DNA from: a virus
Taxonomy: Duplodnaviria > Heunggongvirae > Uroviricota > Caudoviricetes
Length of the DNA: 64,000 bases
Reading direction: 5' to 3' (one strand)
IMG/VR virus record: IMGVR_UViG_3300033067_000504
Coordinates: 31,203 to 95,202 of that record
In this document: positions 3,701-62,215 of the stretch, one piece after another
Position numbering within the stretch: position 1 is the first letter of the stretch
How the letters are laid out: every line of letters begins with the position of its first letter
The notes under the pieces: model-generated
What the model saw: the letters and a program-made list of their open reading frames with translations, nothing else
Database searches by the model: none
What the model was told of the DNA's origin: nothing
Made by a program: the position numbers and the translations under genes

Positions 3701-6700
3701 TCTGTTTCATTGATAATAGAATACATTTCATCTAATGCCTGATCAAACTCTGAAGGTAAGCCTAACACTTTACGTACTAGTCTTAATAGTGTGGACCATA
3801 ATCCACCACTCTTTAGCCTATCTCTGAAGGCTGCATTAGAAGCTAATTCAGCTACAAACTCCTGTAAGTTATAGATTTGCTTGTTTTTAGGATCAAGCTT
3901 CTTAGCTTTCTCCCACAACCTCTCCATATTACGTTTGAAGTTTATTTCTCTCTCTGTTTGGGGATGAGCTATAACTCCAGATATAAATGCGTGGGTTAAT
4001 TCGTGAAGAATAACATAACGCTGTGCTGAATCTGATTTGATATTAGCCTCATTGTTAATTATGATCTTTGTATTTCCACTTTCAAACATTCTGTAAGTAC
4101 CTACTCTTCCATAACTCTTACCATCTACTATTCTTGGTTCAAGAGCTTCTGCAAATAGGTCACTATTTATCTTATCAGCATTATTGAGTAATACCGAAGC
4201 AAGTTGTTTACTCCTTACGTTAGTTTCTCTTTCCACTATTCTTTGCAGAGCTACCTCAGGTGTAGTCTTGTGTCCTGGAATATAGGTAGCTACATACTTA
4301 TTGGTACCAACACTACCACCATTTAGTGGCATGTCTATACTTTTACCTGTACCAAAAGGAGTAGGTTTACCACTATCTTTATTTCTATCCAGATAGGACT
4401 TATTATCACCATTAGGAGATACTTCAAAGAAATTACCAGCTTCTCCAAGCGGTTGTACTTCTTTATATAGTGTTTCCTGTCTTGAAGGTTTACTTGGTGA
4501 AGCTTCATACAATCTGTATCTTCTGGAATCATAATCCCATAGTTTTACAAATTGAGGCATAGTTTCTGTACTGTTCCTACCATTAAAGGTACGATCATCA
4601 TCACTAACCACAAAGCTGTCCAACTGTTGTCCAGTAGTAAATGTCTTTTTTACATTCTTTAAATTAGTCTTTGTATCTCCATCTTTACTTTCGTAATAGA
4701 ATACTTCTGGTATATCAAGATCTGCAAAGTTATGTCTAATGAAGGAACGAACTACACCTAAGCTATTTAGTTGTGTAGCACTCTGTCCTGATTCATCAGT
4801 GGTGTACATTCCTTCTAATACTACTCTGTGATTCTCAGCTATACCATTTTGTACCCAGAACTGTACTGGTACTAAGTCTATAAAGGATTTAGTATTGTAA
4901 CCAAATCCAGAAGTATAGATAGCAAACCTGATTAAGTCACCAGCAAGTATTCTTACAGCCTCATTTGGTGAGGTCATCATATCCCACCAGCCTTGTATCA
5001 TTTGTGTTTTATCCAAGTTAGAGTTAGTGTTAACTACTCCAATCATTGGTATTCCATCTCTTCTATTAGTAGGGATAGACTCTATACCTTTTATTAAAGC
5101 ATTGTCTTTTAATCCTGGGTATTTCTCTACTACAGATTGTAAGTGTCTCCAGATAGTCTTCTCATTGTCAAAGAATGACCACCTGCTGGTGTAGTTGGGG
5201 CTTACCTTATCCAAGGTAGGACGTAATAGGTTCTTTCCTTCTAATACGTAGAAGTCAGTAAACTGATTAAGTTTTATTAGTGTATCCTTATCTGTAAGGT
5301 TAGCTATACCTGCAGCATTAGCATAGGTATTCTTTATATCTCTGTAAGAATTAGAGAAATAAGGATAGAACTGTGATGTAAGACTTATAGCATCATTAAG
5401 TGAATATTTGTAGAACGCAGCTAATCTCTTTGCCTGAGGAGGAGCTGTGGCCAAATCAAATACTCTTTTGCTTATTGATACAGGACTATCCTGATTAGTT
5501 ACTTTAGCTACCTTAGCACTGAATGATTCAATAGCTTCTATACCAGTCATATCCTGGAATGTATCTATTGAAAGTACAGTGTTTAGATCACTCACCAGTT
5601 GTGCATGATTTAAGTAGTTAGTAAAGTCATCAAAGATCTTAGCTTGATTAACTACGTTTTGACTTATTGGAATAGTTAACCCTTCTTTTATCTCTGGTAT
5701 AGTGATGTACTTACCTTTCTTTTCTTCACCAGTTCTAAAATCATCAACTGCAGCTTTTATTTGAGGATACTCTTCCAGTAATTTAGCCGTGGCTGTGTAT
5801 ATGTTTGTACCACCACTAATACCATACATTCTTAACCACTCTCTAATAATAGGCTGGTTTAAGAAGTCCATAGTAAGTGATAAACTCATACCAACATCTA
5901 CCATGTAACCAGCTAGTGGTAACAATACAGGTGGTACATTAAGTTTAGCAAGTAATGGATCTTTAGCTCCATCCAATTCAGCATGTTGCAGCTGAGCATG
6001 GTTATTAGAGATTAAATTACCTTCATTATCTAATACTCCACCCACCTTATTAAACTTGTAGTTGGAGGTATTTATTCTAATACCAGGAACAGTAATGAAG
6101 TCTTTTAATGCTTGCATCATAGCGTGTCCAGTATTGAATCTGGAGGCTATACCAATACCAGACTTAGCCTGCTTATTCTGACGTTCCATACGAACATCAG
6201 TAACAGTAGACAATACGTATCCTTTATTAGTAGTATTAACAATATTACCAGAACCAAGAGGATCAGGTAGTTTGGAATATTCTTCCACCTTCTCTTCTAA
6301 TGTAGGAGCTGCTAATGGTGTTAGTAACTCCTCGGCGTGAGCTTTATTTGTAAGAATGCTCCAAGCTAGATCGAATAGTTTGGTATCAATACTCTCTTTA
6401 TCTATCTTACCTTCTTTGTCTAATACTCTTTTGATCAAGCTGGATTTATCAACATCAAAGTCAAAACCCATTTGAGTAGTACCTTCACCAGGAACCATAA
6501 CTACTGAACCCATTGCTTTAGGTAGTATCATAGCTACTCTAACAGGCATCATAGAAGACTTATTAGATGTAGGTATACGTACCATAATCATCTGTAAAGC
6601 TTCTTTCTGTTGTTGATTTAGCTTTTCCCACTTGATCTTATTTGTAATAGGATCAACATCCTCTATCCAGTTAAGTTTTATCTGACTAAAGAACTCTATG

Positions 6701-23622: not shown

Positions 23623-23932
23623 TGTGTGTAAATTTAGCTGCTTGTTTACGTCTTAAATCTGTCTCAACACCATCTTTTTTAATACTGTATTGTAAGTTAG
23701 ATATTTTAGCTGAATCGAATTTAACTTGTAATTCCAGTTCCTGTATTTTTAGATCTAGTGTGTGTATTTTTTGTTTATACCCAGAAACCTCCTCTTTCAA
23801 CTCTTTTGCGTGTTGTTCAGTTAGTTTCTTTATTTCCTTATCAGAATTGTTACTGGATAGTAAATATCCAGCAACTGTACCAATAAGTATTGCTATAACT
23901 AGTGCTATTATTTGATACTTATATTTGTCCAT
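23582..23932 (-). CDS. small TM plus coiled-coil protein, 116 aa
   Basis: N-terminal TM segment IIALVIAILIGTVAGYLL followed by a coiled-coil region; overlaps its neighbours at both ends. Confidence 0.35.
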   Translation of the reverse strand: MDKYKYQIIALVIAILIGTVAGYLLSSNNSDKEIKKLTEQHAKELKEEVSGYKQKIHTLDLKIQELELQVKFDSAKISNLQYSIKKDGVETDLRRKQAAKFTHNEKVDFLLNRYKH

Positions 23933-24161
23933 CTTTAGGCTTCTGTTTAACTGTATAATTACTAATTATATAGGACAGTGCAGCACAACTCCAGATTGTA
24001 TATCTAACCCATGAAGGAATCATTAGATCGGCAGGTATTGCTCCTAACATGTTAGTAAGTTCCCCTACAACCCCGATTATAGTTATTAGTTTAAAGCCCC
24101 AAGTGTGAAGTAATTCACCAATGTCTGATCTATCAGCTGCCCAACGTTCTTTTAATGTCAT
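23919..24161 (-). CDS. two-TM small membrane protein, 80 aa (holin-like topology)
   Basis: Two hydrophobic segments (LITIIGVVGELTNMLGAI and YTIWSCAALSYIISNY). Confidence 0.35.
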   Translation of the reverse strand: MTLKERWAADRSDIGELLHTWGFKLITIIGVVGELTNMLGAIPADLMIPSWVRYTIWSCAALSYIISNYTVKQKPKDGQI

Positions 24162-24165
24162 TTTA

Positions 24166-25026
24166 TTATTTGTTTAATCGTTCTGGTTGTTCACTGTTAG
24201 TGAAAAAGTCTTCATAGTAGTTGTAAGGAGGTATTAATCTAATAAAGCTCCTATTTAGTTTAGCTGCTCCCTCAGGTGAGTAGTAGGATACCTCTCCCAT
24301 TCCTCTTCCTGCATATATCTCATATTGTTCGTTAGCGAATTGATAGTTGAATACAGGGTGTTGGTATCCAGACCCAATAAGCCTACGAATAACATGCCAT
24401 TCCAAACCCTGTTTAAAATTTTCATTATCTGGTATTAAAGGATAACCGTCTTTATCTGTAGGTACTGCATAATAGTGAATTTTAACATACCCAGACTCAA
24501 AACTGGTTTGTATGTAGTTACCAACTATCTTGTAGTAGTTCTTTACTCTTGTACTGTCGTTTACTTTACTTTGTACTATATCTGTACCATCTGTGTAATA
24601 AGGAGGTCTTACCCCAGCTGTACCACTAGGTAAACCAGTGCTTGTCTGGTGCTGAAATGGGTCAACCTGAAATGAGGATACTCTATTTTGAGTGACTACA
24701 TTAACCCCTCTTGCAGAACTTTCTGACCTCAGGTCTGTTTGATCTCCACCTTCAGGTAGTCTGTTACCGTTCTCGTCTTCAACAGCTATAATGCTTACAA
24801 AACCACAAGGCAATTGTGCACAGTGATTACTGGTTAATATTTCTCCAGGACAATCTTGATCTCCTGTAGATTCTATTATTAAGCTATTAGTTACTTGCAT
24901 CATGCCTAAACCTTCAGCTATCCACTCTAACACATCATCATGATATGTAGAAGGTAACTTGTAGCCTAAAGCTCTGATAACTCTAGCTAATATTTCTTTT
25001 CCAGATGTAAGCTTATACTTTGACAT
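24166..25026 (-). CDS. structural protein, 286 aa
   Basis: ORF in the tail module; no motif recognised. Confidence 0.45.
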   Translation of the reverse strand: MSKYKLTSGKEILARVIRALGYKLPSTYHDDVLEWIAEGLGMMQVTNSLIIESTGDQDCPGEILTSNHCAQLPCGFVSIIAVEDENGNRLPEGGDQTDLRSESSARGVNVVTQNRVSSFQVDPFQHQTSTGLPSGTAGVRPPYYTDGTDIVQSKVNDSTRVKNYYKIVGNYIQTSFESGYVKIHYYAVPTDKDGYPLIPDNENFKQGLEWHVIRRLIGSGYQHPVFNYQFANEQYEIYAGRGMGEVSYYSPEGAAKLNRSFIRLIPPYNYYEDFFTNSEQPERLNK

Positions 25027-50066: not shown

Positions 50067-50124
50067 GCTTCAAATATAAAACTAGTTTATTAGATCTCCA
50101 AATATTTTTTGTGTTTTATTTTAG

Positions 50125-50208
50125 TGCCTCTGGTAGGACTCGAACCTACTCACCCCTAAGGGAACAGATTTACAGTCTGTCGTAACTCTCCAACTTTACC
50201 GCATAGGC
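50125..50208 (-). tRNA. tRNA-Tyr (GTA), type II with long variable arm
   Basis: Hand-folded: anticodon stem-loop ACAGA-CTGTAAA-TCTGT; T-arm GTAGG-TTCGAGT-CCTAC; long variable arm. One mismatch in the acceptor stem; no encoded CCA. Confidence 0.7.
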
Positions 50209-50213
50209 TTAAG

Positions 50214-50299
50214 TACTCCTAACAGGAATCGAACCTGTACCCCTATTACTAGGGAAGGGATTTTAAGTCCCTCGCGTCTACCAGTTCCGCCATAGGAGC
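50214..50299 (-). tRNA. tRNA-Leu (TAA)
   Basis: Hand-folded: anticodon loop CTTAAAA; T-arm ACAGG-TTCGATT-CCTGT; long variable arm; G1-U72. Confidence 0.7.
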
Positions 50300-50304
50300 A
50301 ATTG

Positions 50305-50377
50305 AGGGGAAGGTAAGGATCGAACTTACGACCTAGACATTAACAGTGTCTTGCTACTTCCGCTGAGCTACTTCCCC
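50305..50377 (-). tRNA. tRNA-Asn (GTT)
   Basis: Acceptor GGGGAAG/CTTCCCC perfect; anticodon AGACA-CTGTTAA-TGTCT; T-arm GTAAG-TTCGATC-CTTAC. Confidence 0.75.
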
Positions 50378-50382
50378 TTTAG

Positions 50383-50464
50383 TACTTTAGGAGGGACTCG
50401 AACCCCCACGCCTTTCGGCACCAGATCCTAAGTCTGGCGTGTCTACCAGTTCCACCACTAGAGC
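50383..50464 (-). tRNA. tRNA-Leu (TAG)
   Basis: Anticodon CCAGA-CTTAGGA-TCTGG; variable-arm hairpin GCCGAAAGGC; T-loop TTCGAGT; acceptor has G1-U72 and one C-A mismatch. Confidence 0.6.
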
Positions 50465-50469
50465 GTAAG

Positions 50470-50541
50470 GTGTTAGATGAGATTTGAACTCACGATCAAG
50501 GTTCCACAAACCTATGCTTTAGGCCGCTAAGCTACTAACAC
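50470..50541 (-). tRNA. tRNA-His (GTG), no genomically encoded G-1
   Basis: Acceptor GTGTTAG/CTAACAC perfect; anticodon TAGGT-TTGTGGA-ACCTT; T-arm GTGAG-TTCAAAT-CTCAT; discriminator C; position -1 is U. Confidence 0.7.
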
Positions 50542-50543
50542 AG

Positions 50544-50620
50544 TAAGGTATCCAGGATTTGAACCTGGGAATCTCTTCCTTCCAAGGGAAGCGAGGACGA
50601 CCGGACTCCTCCAATACCTT
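50544..50620 (-). tRNA. tRNA-Pro (TGG)
   Basis: Acceptor AAGGTAT/ATACCTT; D-arm GAGG-AGTCCGGTCGT-CCTC; anticodon CTTCC-CTTGGAA-GGAAG; T-arm CCAGG-TTCAAAT-CCTGG. Confidence 0.75.
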
Positions 50621-56394: not shown

Positions 56395-56406
56395 AACAAA
56401 CACAAG

Positions 56407-58104
56407 ATGTTTAAGCAAAAACAAAAACAACTGATTGAGATTTCTCAATCAACATCTGGCACAACCACAATGGAATCACCATTTGTAGCAGCTGCAAACA
56501 AGAAATCAGCACGTACCTTAAGTGGTAATGGTGCACTCAAATACTCAACAACAGGTAATGACTTTGTTGATCAATTTGGTAAGCTAGGATCTTATAAAAC
56601 TCCTCGTACATATGAAGAGATAGCTAATGATATGGCAACACTGTGGGCAATAAACCCATTGCTAACTGTATGCTTTACTCTGTTCATTCGTATGATTACA
56701 AGAGTGGTAGTATCATTTGATGGTATCAAGACAGCATCACCTCAACGTGGAGCAGGATTGAAAAATGAAGGTATTATGAGAATGATGTGGATTAACATCA
56801 ATCATCGTGATACGTTCTGGAAGAACTTTGGTTTATTTGTTATGGTGGGTTCATGGAAAGATGTCTTTGTGATGTTGTCCTTAGATCTTCAGTATAATGG
56901 ATGGAAATCAAGAATGTTAGATTGGGATAAGTTTGGACAAGCAATACTTGTTGGACTTGAGAATCCTAATACTACCAACTTGGTTAAGAAATATCTACCC
57001 CAACTAAAATCAAACGCACAGTGTAAAACATTGGAATCACAAGCTAATAACATCATTGCAAAATGGTTGTGCAGCTTGTTGTTTGGTGGTAAAAATGGTG
57101 ATACACAGTTTCAGAATTATAAGAAGTATCGCCAGTTAAAAACCAGTGGTACAGCTCACACATGGCAACAACACATATCTCGTAAAGATCTAATTAAGCT
57201 TGACTTTAATACTGTACATGGTAGAGCTTTAGCTCAAATGGTGTCAGGTAAGTTCTTGGCTAATAACGGATTAGAGAAGAGGTATGAGGAATGGATAGCT
57301 AACAAACCAATAGCTAAGTTTACTGGTTATGTAACTGAGTTGTTCATCAAAACTCCAGAGAAGAAGTATCAAATTGATACATTGAATGCTCAGTTCAATG
57401 GATTAATAGAAACAGCAAAAAAGAGTGCAATTACTGCAACAAACTTTATTTCTGTTGTTGATACCAGTGGTTCAATGAGTACACCTAATAGTGGAATCAA
57501 GATGGAGAATGTGGATGTTGCTAAGTCATTAGCATTATTCTTCTCACAAATGTTAAACAAAGGTCCATTTGCTAACGCATGGTTTGAGTTTAACAGTTTT
57601 GCGGTTCTTCATACCATTAAAGGTTCAACACCTTGGGAGAAATGGTGTGACATGAAGAGATATAGTCATACTGGTAGTACAAACTTTATTTCAGTAGTAG
57701 AATATCTAATTGATATCAGGAAAAAGAATCCAAAGTTAGCAGAATCAGATTTCCCACAAGGATTTCTGGTAATGTCAGACATGGAGTTCAATCCTACTCA
57801 GTTTGGTACTAATACTGAAACTGTATTCAAGAGATTGCGTACAGTATTCTCTAAAGAGTTTGTAAACAACTTTAAACTTGTATTCTGGAACCTACAAAGC
57901 AATGCGTATGGTCGAGGAACAGGTGAAAAGTTTGAAACACATGGTAATGAGAAGAATGTATTCTATTTCTCAGGATACGATGGTAGCATAGTAGCATTCT
58001 TAACTGGTGTGGAGGGTAAAGCTGAAAAGCCTACACCCACTACTGCAGAAGAGTTGTTCAAAGCCGCTATGGACCAAGAGGTTCTTAAACTTGTAGAAAT
58101 TTAA
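56407..58104 (+). CDS. vWA-domain protein with an N-terminal helical domain, candidate Ro60/Rsr-like (TROVE+vWA) RNA-binding protein; alternative: DUF2828-type vWA protein
   Basis: Canonical MIDAS motif VVDTSGSMS at aa ~345 with downstream Thr and Asp candidates. The 565-aa length and vWA placement match Ro60 orthologues. The gene is immediately followed by an array of tRNA-mimic structured RNAs, as at rsr-yrlA loci. Confidence 0.5.
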   Translation: MFKQKQKQLIEISQSTSGTTTMESPFVAAANKKSARTLSGNGALKYSTTGNDFVDQFGKLGSYKTPRTYEEIANDMATLWAINPLLTVCFTLFIRMITRVVVSFDGIKTASPQRGAGLKNEGIMRMMWININHRDTFWKNFGLFVMVGSWKDVFVMLSLDLQYNGWKSRMLDWDKFGQAILVGLENPNTTNLVKKYLPQLKSNAQCKTLESQANNIIAKWLCSLLFGGKNGDTQFQNYKKYRQLKTSGTAHTWQQHISRKDLIKLDFNTVHGRALAQMVSGKFLANNGLEKRYEEWIANKPIAKFTGYVTELFIKTPEKKYQIDTLNAQFNGLIETAKKSAITATNFISVVDTSGSMSTPNSGIKMENVDVAKSLALFFSQMLNKGPFANAWFEFNSFAVLHTIKGSTPWEKWCDMKRYSHTGSTNFISVVEYLIDIRKKNPKLAESDFPQGFLVMSDMEFNPTQFGTNTETVFKRLRTVFSKEFVNNFKLVFWNLQSNAYGRGTGEKFETHGNEKNVFYFSGYDGSIVAFLTGVEGKAEKPTPTTAEELFKAAMDQEVLKLVEI

Positions 58105-58140
58105 AATCTTACTGTGACAAGTAAGTGGGGCGGCAAAAGT

Positions 58141-58168
58141 GATAGGTGTAACAGCCTATCACTTTTAT
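58141..58168 (+). terminator. hairpin GATAGG-TGTAACAGC-CCTATC plus T-run; also carries the AACAGC motif in its loop (element 0 of the RNA array)
   Basis: 6-bp stem with the loop sequence shared with the downstream repeat bulge, followed by ACTTTTAT. Confidence 0.4.
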
Positions 58169-58169
58169 A

Positions 58170-58232
58170 AGAGCAGAAACAGCAAATTTAAAAACAATCA
58201 AAGGTTAATTGATAAAGTTAAATCACTGCTCT
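58170..58232 (+). ncRNA. structured RNA unit A (outer helix AGAGCAG/CTGCTCT, AACAGCA bulge, inner ATTTAA/TTAAAT helix)
   Basis: Complementary 7-nt ends flank the conserved bulge motif. Confidence 0.45.
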
Positions 58233-58237
58233 GATAA

Positions 58238-58295
58238 GATTACCAACAGCAAATCAAAAAACTTCTAAATTTACTTGGAAAAACAGATGGTAATC
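58238..58295 (+). ncRNA. structured RNA unit B (outer helix GATTACC/GGTAATC, AACAGCA bulge)
   Basis: Same architecture with a different, compensatory outer helix. Confidence 0.45.
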
Positions 58296-58301
58296 TGATA
58301 A

Positions 58302-58423
58302 GTTCTGTAACAGCAATTTTAAAGCTAATTCCAACAGTGGGTCGCAAGTTCGAGTCTTGCATGGTTCGTAAGAGCCATTAGCTCAGGTGGTAGAGCAACC
58401 GTCAATGCAAAAAAATTCAGAAC
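58302..58423 (+). ncRNA. Y RNA (YrlA)-like unit C carrying a tRNA mimic
   Basis: Outer helix GTTCTG/CAGAAC; bulge TAACAGC; inner AATTTT/AAAATT. Apical module: T-arm GCAAG-TTCGAGT-CTTGC, ATGGTTC, GTAA loop, GAGCCAT (complementary, G-U at one position), U8, D-arm GCTC-AGGTGGTAG-AGC with G18G19. Confidence 0.55.
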
Positions 58424-58429
58424 TGATAA

Positions 58430-58544
58430 TGTGAGTAACAGCAATTTTAAATGAATTTGGTTCCGTAGACGTAGGTTCGATCCCTACACCCCTACCATAA
58501 GGTTTGGGTTCGTCTAGTGGCTAGGACAACGTAAAATTCTCACA
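58430..58544 (+). ncRNA. Y RNA (YrlA)-like unit D carrying a tRNA mimic
   Basis: Outer helix (A)TGTGAG/CTCACA(T); bulge TAACAGC; inner AATTTTA/TAAAATT. T-arm GTAGG-TTCGATC-CCTAC, ACCCCTACC-ATAA-GGTTTGGGT acceptor-like hairpin (7 of 9 bp), D-arm GTCT-AGTGGCTA-GGAC. Confidence 0.5.
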
Positions 58545-58550
58545 TGATAA

Positions 58551-58646
58551 AGTGTCACGCAGCAAAACAAAAACTATTCTTTTTGAAACAGAGACGAAGC
58601 TTGGAGGCTAGTAATAGTACGGGTTCGATTCCCCGAATTTGACACT
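58551..58646 (+). ncRNA. structured RNA unit E (outer helix AGTGTCA/TGACACT, variant CGCAGCA bulge, T-arm-like CGGG-TTCGATT-CCCG element)
   Basis: Same outer-helix/bulge architecture; the apical part holds a T-arm-like hairpin only. Confidence 0.4.
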
Positions 58647-58663
58647 TGTTAAACAAACAAACT

Positions 58664-60982: not shown

Positions 60983-62215
60983 ATGAAAACAAATCAAATA
61001 GTAGGATTGGTAGTGGGAGTAGTATTACTATTTCTAGGACTTATGATGAACCCATTTTCCTGGAATGATGCAGGAAATCGAACAGTGGTAGAACAGGCTG
61101 GAGGAACACAATTTGTGGAATTCACTCCTGGTATTTTCTATGCTGGATTCTTTGCAAAAGAAACAGAATGGCCCAATCAGATTTCAGTAACTTATATGAA
61201 AGATCAGGCAGACCTCGATCTTCGTGATAATGGTATTGAGATTGGTAAGATTCAGGTAATGTTTAATGATGGAACTACAGCAGATGTAAAGGGTATAGCA
61301 CAATTTGTGTTGCCTTCTGATGCTAAAGACATGATTTTGATTCACAATACACACAGAACCCCACAATCATTAGTTACTAAAAGATTAGCTACTTTCACTA
61401 AAGAATGTCTACAATCATCAGCTCAATCTATGAGTAGTGATAAGCATTATGGAGGAGGTAGAGCACAGATGTCACAAGACTTTATTGATCAGCTTCGTAA
61501 TGGTGTTTATATATCCTTTACAGAAGAGAAGGTAGTCTATGATTCTGTAGCTAAAGAGAATAAAAGATTGTACATAACATCTGTTAGGAAAGGGGAAGAT
61601 GGTCAGCCTACACGTAAAACTTCAGCAATTAAAGAATATCAAATTTCTGTTGCTGATGCTTCTATTGTAGACACTGATTATGCAGATGTAGTTGATCAAA
61701 AGTTGAAACAAGTAATTGATGCTGCAACCAAATCAGCAGTATCAAGACAAAACCTTATGACCGCACAGCAGGAAGCTTTAACAGCTAAAGCTCAAGGTGA
61801 AAAGGATCTTGTGGAGATAGAGTATCAACAAAAACAAGAGCAAACAAAACAAGTAGTAGAAGCTGAAACTAAAGTAAAGGTTGCACAACAAGACCTTGAA
61901 CAACAAAAGATTCAGTTTACAGCTGCAACATTTGAGGCTAAGAAAAAAGTAACGTTGGCTGATGCTAGTGCTTATGAGAAGAAGACTACAATTCAGGCGG
62001 ATGGAGCTTTGGAGCTTAAACTTAATGCTCTTGTAAATATTCAAAAGAGTTGGGCAGATGCTTTTAGTAAGTACCAAGGTAATATTGTTCCCATGTACCA
62101 GACGGGTAATGGTGGAACAGGTAATGGTGCTGTAAGCTTCATGGAACTTATGACAGCTAAAACGGCTAAAGATCTTGCTCTTGATTTGAATGTTCCAAAA
62201 GGAAAGAATCCTTAA
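60983..62215 (+). CDS. membrane-anchored SPFH/band-7-like protein with a C-terminal coiled coil, 410 aa
   Basis: N-terminal TM segment IVGLVVGVVLLFLGLMM, a beta-rich middle domain, then a long Gln/Glu/Lys coiled coil. Confidence 0.4.
   Translation: MKTNQIVGLVVGVVLLFLGLMMNPFSWNDAGNRTVVEQAGGTQFVEFTPGIFYAGFFAKETEWPNQISVTYMKDQADLDLRDNGIEIGKIQVMFNDGTTADVKGIAQFVLPSDAKDMILIHNTHRTPQSLVTKRLATFTKECLQSSAQSMSSDKHYGGGRAQMSQDFIDQLRNGVYISFTEEKVVYDSVAKENKRLYITSVRKGEDGQPTRKTSAIKEYQISVADASIVDTDYADVVDQKLKQVIDAATKSAVSRQNLMTAQQEALTAKAQGEKDLVEIEYQQKQEQTKQVVEAETKVKVAQQDLEQQKIQFTAATFEAKKKVTLADASAYEKKTTIQADGALELKLNALVNIQKSWADAFSKYQGNIVPMYQTGNGGTGNGAVSFMELMTAKTAKDLALDLNVPKGKNP

Follow-up and report, generated by a model that had tools for sequence, protein, structure and literature searches.

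A tandem array of framed RNAs with permuted tRNA-like domains beside a Ro60-like protein gene in phages: candidate Y-RNA-like ligands of the DUF2828/DUF7788 family

The stretch of tailed-phage DNA analyzed here (the window; 64,000 nucleotides of IMG/VR record IMGVR_UViG_3300033067_000504) contains a tandem array of five small RNA units (58170-58648, plus strand). The array lies directly behind the gene for a Ro60-like protein and on the same strand. Two of the units, C and D, carry a tRNA-like domain in permuted order, in which the T-arm and the acceptor stem precede the D-arm. A first-pass annotation of the sequence had singled out these two domains as tRNA mimics with the architecture of the bacterial Y RNA YrlA. 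The results presented here reveal that all five units share one frame, that such arrays adjoin genes of the same protein family in other phages, and that the mRNA of the protein itself carries a copy of the frame. The array probably provides Y-RNA-like ligands of the Ro60-like protein, which would form a ribonucleoprotein (RNP) through the frame, display tRNA-shaped cargo as an adaptor or decoy, and regulate its own synthesis. The phage arrays appear to be an undescribed branch of the Ro60/Y-RNA system, present in many phages including Felix O1.

Results

The array occupies an intergenic region (58105-58663) between an open reading frame (ORF) of 565 amino acids (aa; 56407-58104, plus strand) and a small ORF. 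It is marked by five copies of a 29-nucleotide (nt) direct repeat (family D1) that start at 58165, 58232, 58296, 58424 and 58545. The pattern TGATAAG-N7-ACAGCAA, with at most two mismatches, matches all five array sites; the whole window has seven matches against a chance expectation of 1.1. A unit opens with a 5′ arm of its own (6-7 nt), a spacer of 1-2 nt and ACAGCAA; the cargo comes next, and then a 3′ arm that is complementary to the first, (C)UG and an AUAA linker (Table 1). The UGAUAA form of the linker is the position-specific consensus over 248 units. In the minimum free energy folds of all five units the terminal stem is present and ACAGCAA stays unpaired; the z-scores are -2.0 to -2.9 for units A to D. 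The parts shared by the units are referred to here as the frame.

The cargo differs from unit to unit. tRNA parts are absent from units A and B, complete as a permuted domain in C and D, and limited to a T-arm-like hairpin in E. The cargo of unit A has an ortholog in unit 2 of a related locus, L002; orthologs of unit D occur in L002, L012 and L035, and units with only a T-arm in L001, L035 and L109. A hairpin equivalent to the one that leads the array, followed by UAUAAG, stands ahead of the first unit in L002, L003, L012 and L035. The array yields no match at threshold to any Rfam 15 family. A reading of CUGAUAAG as a hammerhead or other ribozyme was rejected, as a sensitive Rfam scan gives no ribozyme match in the array. 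The core of the hammerhead has G8, which is absent from the CUGAUAAG motif and is a further ground for the rejection.

The first-pass annotation placed the T-arm and the loop-capped, seven-base-pair acceptor stem of unit C, with its single G-U, exactly where they are found. U8 and the D-arm are present as well, the 3′ strand of the latter having been given one base short (AGC, where the sequence reads GAGC). All elements described for unit D also exist, and its acceptor hairpin has a central 2x2 mismatch that had gone unmentioned. The claim that the anticodon stem is replaced by a long helix of the unit ends stands in part. In both units the frame occupies the position of the anticodon arm of a tRNA, but the helix is 6-7 bp rather than one long helix and is followed by A-rich internal loops and a weak, 4/5-bp equivalent of the anticodon stem. 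The G-U of unit C falls at 3:70, the position of the alanine identity pair. It is probably incidental, because the L002 ortholog lacks it. ARAGORN and the Rfam tRNA model call no tRNA in 58105-58663; in the window they call six ordinary tRNA genes (Tyr, Leu, Asn, Leu, His and Pro) at 50124-50620 on the minus strand, 6 kb upstream and opposite to the array.

A strict parser recognized full tRNA-like domains in 41 of 248 non-identical units, and a covariance model, R1, was seeded with 17 parsed units, unit D being excluded. R1 found 106 matches at E<=1e-3 from 96 sources, and 47 of the 58 top matches are in, or next to, a chain of framed units. With R1, unit C scores 69.1 bits and the left-out unit D is recovered at 40.2 bits (E 2.5e-9), which bears out the earlier statement that the arrangement exists in two copies. 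Over 104 distinct sequences, 95.3% of the helix cells of the tRNA-like domain are paired, versus 60.3% after shuffling and 40-48% with slid partners, and the covariation score is 0.824 versus 0.22. Double-sided changes occur at all six acceptor pairs and at 14 of 15 pairs of the T, acceptor and D helices overall; 91.8% of acceptor cells are paired. The slid-partner control and the recovery of unit D indicate that the tRNA-like signal is real.

Conservation of the elbow nucleotides in homologous loci was a check set beforehand by the first-pass annotation, and its outcome supports the mimicry reading. In the top 58 R1 matches T54, T55, A58, U8, A14 and G18 are invariant, C56 is present in 56 and G19 in 51. 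The tertiary 15:48 (Levitt) pair is G:C in 42 of these matches, A:U in 10, G:U in three and A:C in none (Fisher p 1e-8, uncorrected for phylogeny).

The initial unit finder was permissive and returned many isolated chance matches. Counts were therefore limited to chains of abutting units, and the frame stem was assessed separately in 92 units set by sequence anchors only, with no pairing imposed. When the first 7 nt after one linker were compared with the last 7 nt before the next, at least six of seven pairs formed in 67% of the units versus 5% with shuffled partners. The arms of these units comprise 80 distinct sequences, and every position shows three to four kinds of Watson-Crick pair. A MAFFT alignment of 97 short units was dropped for its ragged 3′ arm, and no model was built from it.

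Most units in these arrays have no tRNA parts at all, and the 41 parsed domains are themselves diverse: their acceptor loops range from 3 to 174 nt, and their D-arms include Glu-like and Leu-like types. The loop after the 3′ strand of the acceptor opens with AC in 15 of the 41, versus about 6% expected; this AC may be a relic, or a functional form, of A73-C74. The domain and the frame are also combined in more than one way. In units C and D the acceptor is closed and the frame is open. The acceptor is open and the frame stem is capped by the linker in L146 (2358-2471; Rfam tRNA 44.4 bits) and in L215 (minus strand, upstream of 1313-1390), where the RNA ends in GCCA. In L147 (1839-1950; 69.8 bits) a complete tRNA-Thr of normal order is the cargo within the frame. 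The occurrence of these three arrangements excludes junk and speaks for a single three-dimensional design in which either end may be open.

The 565-aa ORF ends 65 nt before unit A and about 200 nt before unit C. Pfam assigns it to DUF7788 only (E 2.9e-20; the only family at E<=0.01), close relatives match DUF2828 too, and the PHROGs label of the family is 'RNA-binding protein'. A phmmer search of PDB sequences with this protein returned nothing at E<=1. Its AlphaFold model, made with 34 homologues, is of high quality (pLDDT 88, pTM 0.88). The seven best Foldseek matches of the model in PDB are full-length Ro60/TROVE structures, including 2I91 (E 3.7e-8), 9KOP, 1YVR, 9NF8, 9NEP and 2NVO. As modelled, the protein next to the array has the Ro60 fold, a ring of helical repeats followed by a von Willebrand factor A (vWA) domain. 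Residues D352, S354 and S356 of its MIDAS (metal ion-dependent adhesion site) are invariant in the 34 homologues. The family comprises 3111 clusters at 50% identity (E<=1e-3), and about 494 GenBank phage records have a member, among them Felix O1 and Staphylococcus, Campylobacter, Bacillus and Vibrio phages. In a full-text literature search that covered the RNA motifs as well as DUF2828 and its identifiers in Pfam and InterPro, no functional study and no link between DUF2828 and RNA came up.

A search of IMG/VR for relatives with the single protein found none. Loci were gathered instead by a DNA-pattern scan of IMG/VR and an alignment-based scan of metagenomes. The 14-base pattern of the IMG/VR scan is blind to the protein. 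It gave 120 loci, mostly single chance matches, a match being real only where there are several copies. At every locus with tandem copies a DUF2828 homologue adjoins on the same strand or the array lies at the locus edge, as in L082 and L083, where the gene is out of view. All 61 chains of at least three abutting units adjoin a DUF2828 homologue, and every chain with its gene in view shares the strand of that gene. Chains were absent from the opposite strand and from about 100 unrelated viral loci. Among 70 metagenomic homologue loci with adequate flank, 40 carry a chain of at least three units; 34 chains are downstream of the gene and 14 upstream, with 3 to 10 chained units per locus. In 596 Gb of bacterial genomes a 22-base two-unit pattern matched nine places, eight of them by chance, mostly in coding repeats. 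The sole real array is on a Bacteroides-binned contig, beside a DUF2828 gene of 54% identity.

The association extends to distant members of the family. Leptolyngbya phage Lbo-JY46 (protein 44% identical) has five framed units directly after the gene. In Felix O1, Bacillus phage Izhevsk and a Klebsiella phage the frame, including full permuted tRNA-like units, occurs beside DUF2828 genes of only 24-26% identity, and the units are mixed among genuine tRNA genes. The DUF2828 gene stands at the edge of, or inside, the tRNA gene cluster in these three loci (L207, L208 and L209), which suggests a general link between the DUF2828 family and phage tRNA biology. The framed RNAs between the tRNA genes of Felix O1 (AF320576) are unannotated, and one has a full permuted tRNA-like domain. 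Small 'unknown' ORFs of the opposite strand in this record (ORF91 and ORF94) overlap some of them.

The mRNA of the Ro60-like protein begins like a unit of the array. In the window AAGCAAA, one mismatch from ACAGCAA, follows the start codon, and the region folds at -12.8 kcal/mol (z -2.75). Many homologues open with ..AUAAG-AUGUUUA-ACAGCAA-A.. and have (A)ACAUC-UG about 45-55 nt further on, and therefore the AUG falls in the 5′ arm of a stem. Among 74 non-identical gene starts, ACAGCAA is found at +5..+8 in 25, or in 37 if one mismatch is allowed. ACATCTG occurs at +25..+110 in 35, versus 0.015 expected per such interval from the rest of the same ORFs, or about one in all. It is in frame 0 in 33 of the 35; its codons are fixed and its distance is variable, and the protein stretch itself is unconserved. 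The frame copy is likely a translational operator, and the Ro60-like protein probably represses its own translation by binding it around the start codon. An RNA-level constraint by which the frame of the array is copied onto the mRNA of the adjacent protein has the look of an autoregulatory operator, and the mimic is the strongest, if indirect, argument that the protein recognizes the frame.

Other features were noted near genes of this family. ORFs neighboring the Ro60-like gene include no RNA-repair or polynucleotide phosphorylase (PNPase) gene. A conserved SPFH/Band_7 gene lies a few genes downstream of the DUF2828 gene and array in several relatives: it is present in the window (60983-62215), in L002 (6566-7689) and in L005 (6222-7004). 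L148 has a tmRNA-like match upstream of its DUF2828 gene (747-1236; 37.6 bits, gathering score 47, E 1.7e-11). L130 has a twister-P1 ribozyme match about 2 kb downstream of its array (4596-4660; 50.1 bits, gathering score 67.2, E 3.7e-8).

Table 1. Features of the gene and array in the window, with the framed RNAs of Felix O1 for comparison
Feature	Position	Strand	Description
Ro60-like protein gene	56407..58104	+	565 aa; predicted alpha-helical ring and vWA domain, DxSxS MIDAS
Start-codon frame copy	56405..56459	+	Stem AGAUGU/ACAUCU (56405-56410 with 56452-56457) holding AUG; AAGCAAA; inner hairpin; UG after 3′ arm
Leader hairpin	58135..58166	+	Perfect 12 bp, then UUAUAAG; inverted repeat I3; takes the place of the 'previous unit' stem before unit A
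UGAUAA linker	58296..58301; also 58232-58237, 58424-58429, 58545-58550	+	UUAUAA variant at 58165-58170
Unit A	58170..58233	+	Stem (A)GAGCAG/CUGCUC(U); ACAGCAA 58179-58185; cargo without tRNA-like part; z -2.0
Unit B	58238..58297	+	Stem GAUUACC/GGUAAUC; ACAGCAA 58246-58252; small inner hairpin, A-rich 3′ part, CUG tail; z -2.9
Unit C	58302..58425	+	Stem GUUCUG/CAGAAC; ACAGCAA 58310-58316; permuted tRNA-like cargo; CUG tail; z -2.5
Unit C tRNA-like domain	58339..58397	+	Variable-loop GGGUC, T-arm, acceptor hairpin, U8 A9, D-arm, A26
Unit C T-arm	58344-58360	+	GCAAG-TTCGAGT-CTTGC
Unit C acceptor hairpin	58361-58378	+	ATGGTTC-GTAA-GAGCCAT; 7 bp including one G-U at the 3:70 equivalent
Unit C U8 A9	58379-58380	+	
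Unit C D-arm	58381-58396	+	GCTC-AGGTGGTA-GAGC
Unit D	58430..58546	+	Stem UGUGAG/CUCACA; ACAGCAA 58438-58444; permuted tRNA-like cargo, tRNA-Glu-type D-arm; z -2.5
Unit D tRNA-like domain	58466..58528	+	T-arm, imperfect acceptor hairpin, U8 C9, D-arm, A26
Unit D T-arm	58471-58487	+	GTAGG-TTCGATC-CCTAC
Unit D acceptor hairpin	58488-58509	+	ACCCCTACC-ATAA-GGTTTGGGT; 7/9 pairs, central 2x2 mismatch
Unit D D-arm	58512-58527	+	GTCT-AGTGGCTA-GGAC; UC just before
Unit E	58551..58648	+	Stem AGUGUCA/UGACACU; GCAGCAA variant 58559-58565; T-arm-like hairpin 58620-58635; then UG; last in array
Felix O1 framed RNAs	L207 5356-5422, 5523-5580, 5977-6044, ~6062-6196		Record positions 23872-23938, 24039-24096, 24493-24560, ~24578-24712

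Discussion

Ro60 proteins of bacteria and phages bind adjacent Y RNAs, one of which, YrlA, has a tRNA-like domain (PMC4201824). Judged by their sequences, the phage RNAs share the design of YrlA (RF02553, PMC4201824) and are not members of its family. In both systems a small RNA gene lies beside a gene for a Ro60-fold protein, and the RNA has two modules: a stem formed by its ends, with a conserved motif on the 5′ side, and a T-arm, loop-capped acceptor and D-arm. In both, the nucleotides of the tRNA tertiary interactions are conserved and the Levitt pair covaries. Loci of the YrlA type may likewise have several RNAs, some with a T-arm only (compare YrlB). The order of the arms and the conserved tertiary nucleotides sustain the description of units C and D by the first-pass annotation as tRNA mimics with YrlA architecture. 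The Ro60 fold of the gene just ahead of the array, on which that annotation did not draw, supports it as well.

The differences concern the frame and its surroundings. In sensitive mode the Rfam YrlA model matches unit C at 36.5 bits (E 3.6e-6) over positions 24-84 of 114, the tRNA-like core; for unit D it gives nothing at E<=10. In 14 related loci twelve units reach 31-41 bits, the gathering score being 69, and here too the alignment is confined to the core. In the phage units positions 1-23 and 85-114 of the model are left unaligned or aligned with non-pairs. The Ro-binding 5′ strand of YrlA, GNCGAAN0-1G (PMC4201824), is absent, and an unpaired ACAGCAA after a stem of 6-7 bp is present instead. 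Unlike YrlA, the phage RNAs follow one another head to tail, 3 to about 10 to an array, joined by a fixed UGAUAA linker; a tRNA-like part is missing from most units, and the mRNA of the protein carries a frame copy. The partner belongs to Pfam DUF2828/DUF7788, not TROVE. The genomic criterion for YrlA is a position within about 4 kb of a TROVE orthologue; here the gene 65 nt before unit A encodes a Ro60-fold protein with a DUF7788 match.

Phage Ro60 proteins are known from other systems. The phiRo60 protein of Thermus phage phiLo binds two adjacent Yrl RNAs and the host PNPase (PMC12135203). In contrast to the DUF2828/DUF7788 protein described here, it was deposited (PDB 9KOP and 9L5Y; PMC12135203) as a TROVE domain-containing protein. 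Its RNAs, Yrl1 and Yrl2, were chosen by a CGAA motif and are described neither as an array nor as having a tRNA-like domain; the text of that paper does not name YrlA and has the word tRNA just twice. TROVE proteins with tRNA-like partners are on record for jumbo phages too (PMC7824862). In the Felixounavirus Bas63, gp130 is Ro60-like, is encoded directly upstream of tRNA genes and counters the Ppl defence (PhageMaP preprint, PMC11482910). The authors guessed that some of the Bas63 'tRNAs' are Y RNAs, the RNAs themselves not being identified there (PMC11482910). ORF86 of Felix O1, a DUF2828 homologue, has the same position as gp130, and orthology is judged from position and description only. 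The ACAGCAA-framed units between the tRNA genes of Felix O1, and not the tRNAs themselves, are candidates for these Y RNAs.

According to the explanation favored here, the units would be the Ro60-like protein's own Y RNAs, presumably released from the array by processing. The frame would be the binding site of the protein and would correspond in function to the Ro-binding stem in Y RNAs. What lies between the arms, the cargo, would be the variable, specializing part, which in units C and D is a tRNA elbow with an acceptor stem. Because this cargo has the frame at the site of the anticodon arm, enzymes or toxins that read the shape of a tRNA and not its anticodon may be attracted to the RNP or diverted by it. 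Candidate targets are RNase P, the CCA-adding enzyme, TruB/Dus, exoribonucleases and tRNA-directed defence nucleases, and the RNP could accordingly have a part in RNA metabolism or anti-defence.

Several observations weigh against this explanation. Pfam TROVE (PF05731) is undetected by sequence in the 565-aa ORF. The alignment behind the covariation counts was fitted to the model, whose seed units came from a parser that requires pairing; both circumstances favor structure. The acceptor hairpin of unit D has two mismatches, and the whole-unit fold of unit E is no better than shuffles (z +0.27). A strict three-unit chain is missing from 30 of the 70 metagenomic loci, some of which have dispersed units and others short flanks. 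About half of the close homologues have no start-codon mimic. The frame of Felix O1 lacks the UGAUAA linker, its arms are nearly constant, and there is no start-codon mimic. Finally, the frame could serve as a processing signal instead of a protein-binding site.

In that last case the frame would be a cassette for RNA processing or stabilization, in which the stem, ACAGCAA and UGAUAA guide an endonuclease of host or phage that cuts the polycistronic precursor into units, in the manner of tRNA clusters; the protein would act elsewhere, for example on the tRNA-like cargo or on damaged host RNAs. The abutting of units, with their linker of a constant 6 nt and their invariant CUG tail, is consistent with such cutting, as are the genuine normal-order tRNA framed in L147 and, in Felix O1, Bacillus phage Izhevsk and the Klebsiella phage, the interspersion of units with tRNA genes. 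Placed at the 5′ end of an mRNA, a frame fits a cleavage mark as well as an operator. However, a mark read by a host enzyme would not be expected to follow a single phage gene so closely through hosts as diverse as cyanobacteria, Bacteroidota, Firmicutes and Enterobacteria. Felix O1 retains the stem and ACAGCAA with the linker gone, which argues that the conserved core is not the cut site, and binding of adjacent small RNAs by way of a terminal stem is known for Ro60 proteins (PMC4201824, PMC12135203). A processing cassette is an unlikely reading of the frame, and it is compatible with binding by the protein. A variant of the favored explanation, differing only in how the cargo acts, makes the tRNA-like units precursors of tRNA mimics in two pieces with an open acceptor: the loop would be cut out by RNase P and a 3′ processing enzyme, CCA would be added, and the active product, its acceptor end free and perhaps chargeable, would be a decoy or substrate for enzymes or toxins directed at that end. 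The acceptor loop of M. smegmatis YrlA is removed by RNase P and 3′ processing and CCA is added, and a 7-bp acceptor stem, as found here, is the length that permits this cleavage (PMC4201824). The loops of 3 to 174 nt look dispensable, their AC start in 15 of 41 parsed units resembles A73 C74, and open versions exist in L146 and L215. However, S. Typhimurium YrlA and D. radiodurans Yrn1 are not so cleaved (PMC4201824), the acceptor stem of unit D is imperfect, and the G3:U70 pair of unit C is not conserved in L002. This mode of action is possible, if somewhat improbable.

Two further readings take the domains for genuine tRNA sequence. Decaying tRNA genes or the junctions of tandem ones, where a pseudogene T-arm is followed by the next D-arm, were flagged as false positives of YrlA searches by Chen et al. 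(PMC4201824), and the D-arms of the units do resemble particular tRNA types, such as Glu and Leu. Real tandem junctions in the window (50196-50573, minus strand) match R1, but at 20-33 bits only and without acceptor pairing, whereas the acceptor strands of one unit pair and covary. The order of the halves, the frame and the elbow nucleotides are kept over proteins of 24-65% identity, and an anticodon arm is absent. This reading, which the first-pass annotation had already set aside, is contradicted by the acceptor covariation and can hardly be entertained. Circularly permuted tRNA genes of the Cyanidioschyzon type are another case in which the 3′ half stands ahead of the 5′ half and a short linker joins the acceptor ends. 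In Cyanidioschyzon merolae such genes reportedly yield functional tRNAs through a circular intermediate that depends on a bulge-helix-bulge, a finding attributed to Soma and colleagues in 2007. The terminal stem likewise brings the unit ends together, and removal of the acceptor loop from a circle would give a tRNA. However, the joined ends yield a weak 4/5-bp helix, A-rich strands, ACAGCAA and the terminal stem; the anticodon arms of the algal genes cannot form here. No bulge-helix-bulge was seen at the unit ends when the sequence was checked by eye, and most units of the same arrays have no tRNA parts. Permuted tRNA genes are a very improbable explanation.

The units without tRNA parts have a resemblance of their own. 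Unit B matches the Rfam family Dicty_Class_I_RNA (RF01414) end to end at 31.7 bits (E 7e-4), and 16 more units in the 14 related loci match the full model at 27-39.4 bits, the gathering score of 41.5 not being reached. All of these units are within arrays on the gene strand (for example L164 4111-4165, L001 4734-4791 and L177 3529-3585). Dictyostelium Class I RNAs (PMC7919456) are 42-65 nt long; their ends are joined by a short stem, CUG stands behind the 3′ arm, and straight after the 5′ arm comes a conserved motif ending in UUACAGCAA, followed by a variable A-rich remainder. They share with the phage units (U)UACAGCAA directly after the 5′ arm and the A-rich body; of the 11-nt motif CCUUACAGCAA only 7-8 positions are common to the phage units, which have (U)(U/A)ACAGCAA. 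Class I RNAs are encoded by nuclear genes with a Dictyostelium upstream sequence element (DUSE) promoter about 60 nt upstream, are reported from dictyostelids only and have no known function (PMC7919456, Kjellin et al. 2021). The only protein shown to bind them directly is the RNA recognition motif protein Rnp1A (PMC7919456). In contrast to their layout of dictyostelid gene and DUSE, the phage units abut with 6-nt linkers in phage loci. It is conceivable, though doubtful, that the stem, ACAGCAA and CUG are an ancient recognition element of the DUF2828 type, and that Class I RNAs are its eukaryotic form, the Y RNAs of DUF2828 proteins. Pfam lists eukaryotic members of DUF2828.

The results extend the Ro60/Y-RNA system to a large family of phage proteins, DUF2828/DUF7788, that was previously a functional blank, and give its RNA partner an exact, searchable definition. 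They also offer concrete RNAs for the published guess that the Ro60-like anti-defence protein of Felixounavirus works with Y RNAs. One frame, predicted to bind the protein, holds many cargos, including tRNA elbows of several types, lone T-arms, whole tRNAs and small hairpins, which points to a modular adaptor or decoy system. The frame copy over the start codon predicts an autoregulatory operator that can be tested. Class I RNAs are said to be abundant, developmentally regulated, without a known function since 2004 and restricted to Dictyostelia. If the phage arrays are truly their viral counterparts, the arrays would provide a lead on what these RNAs do.

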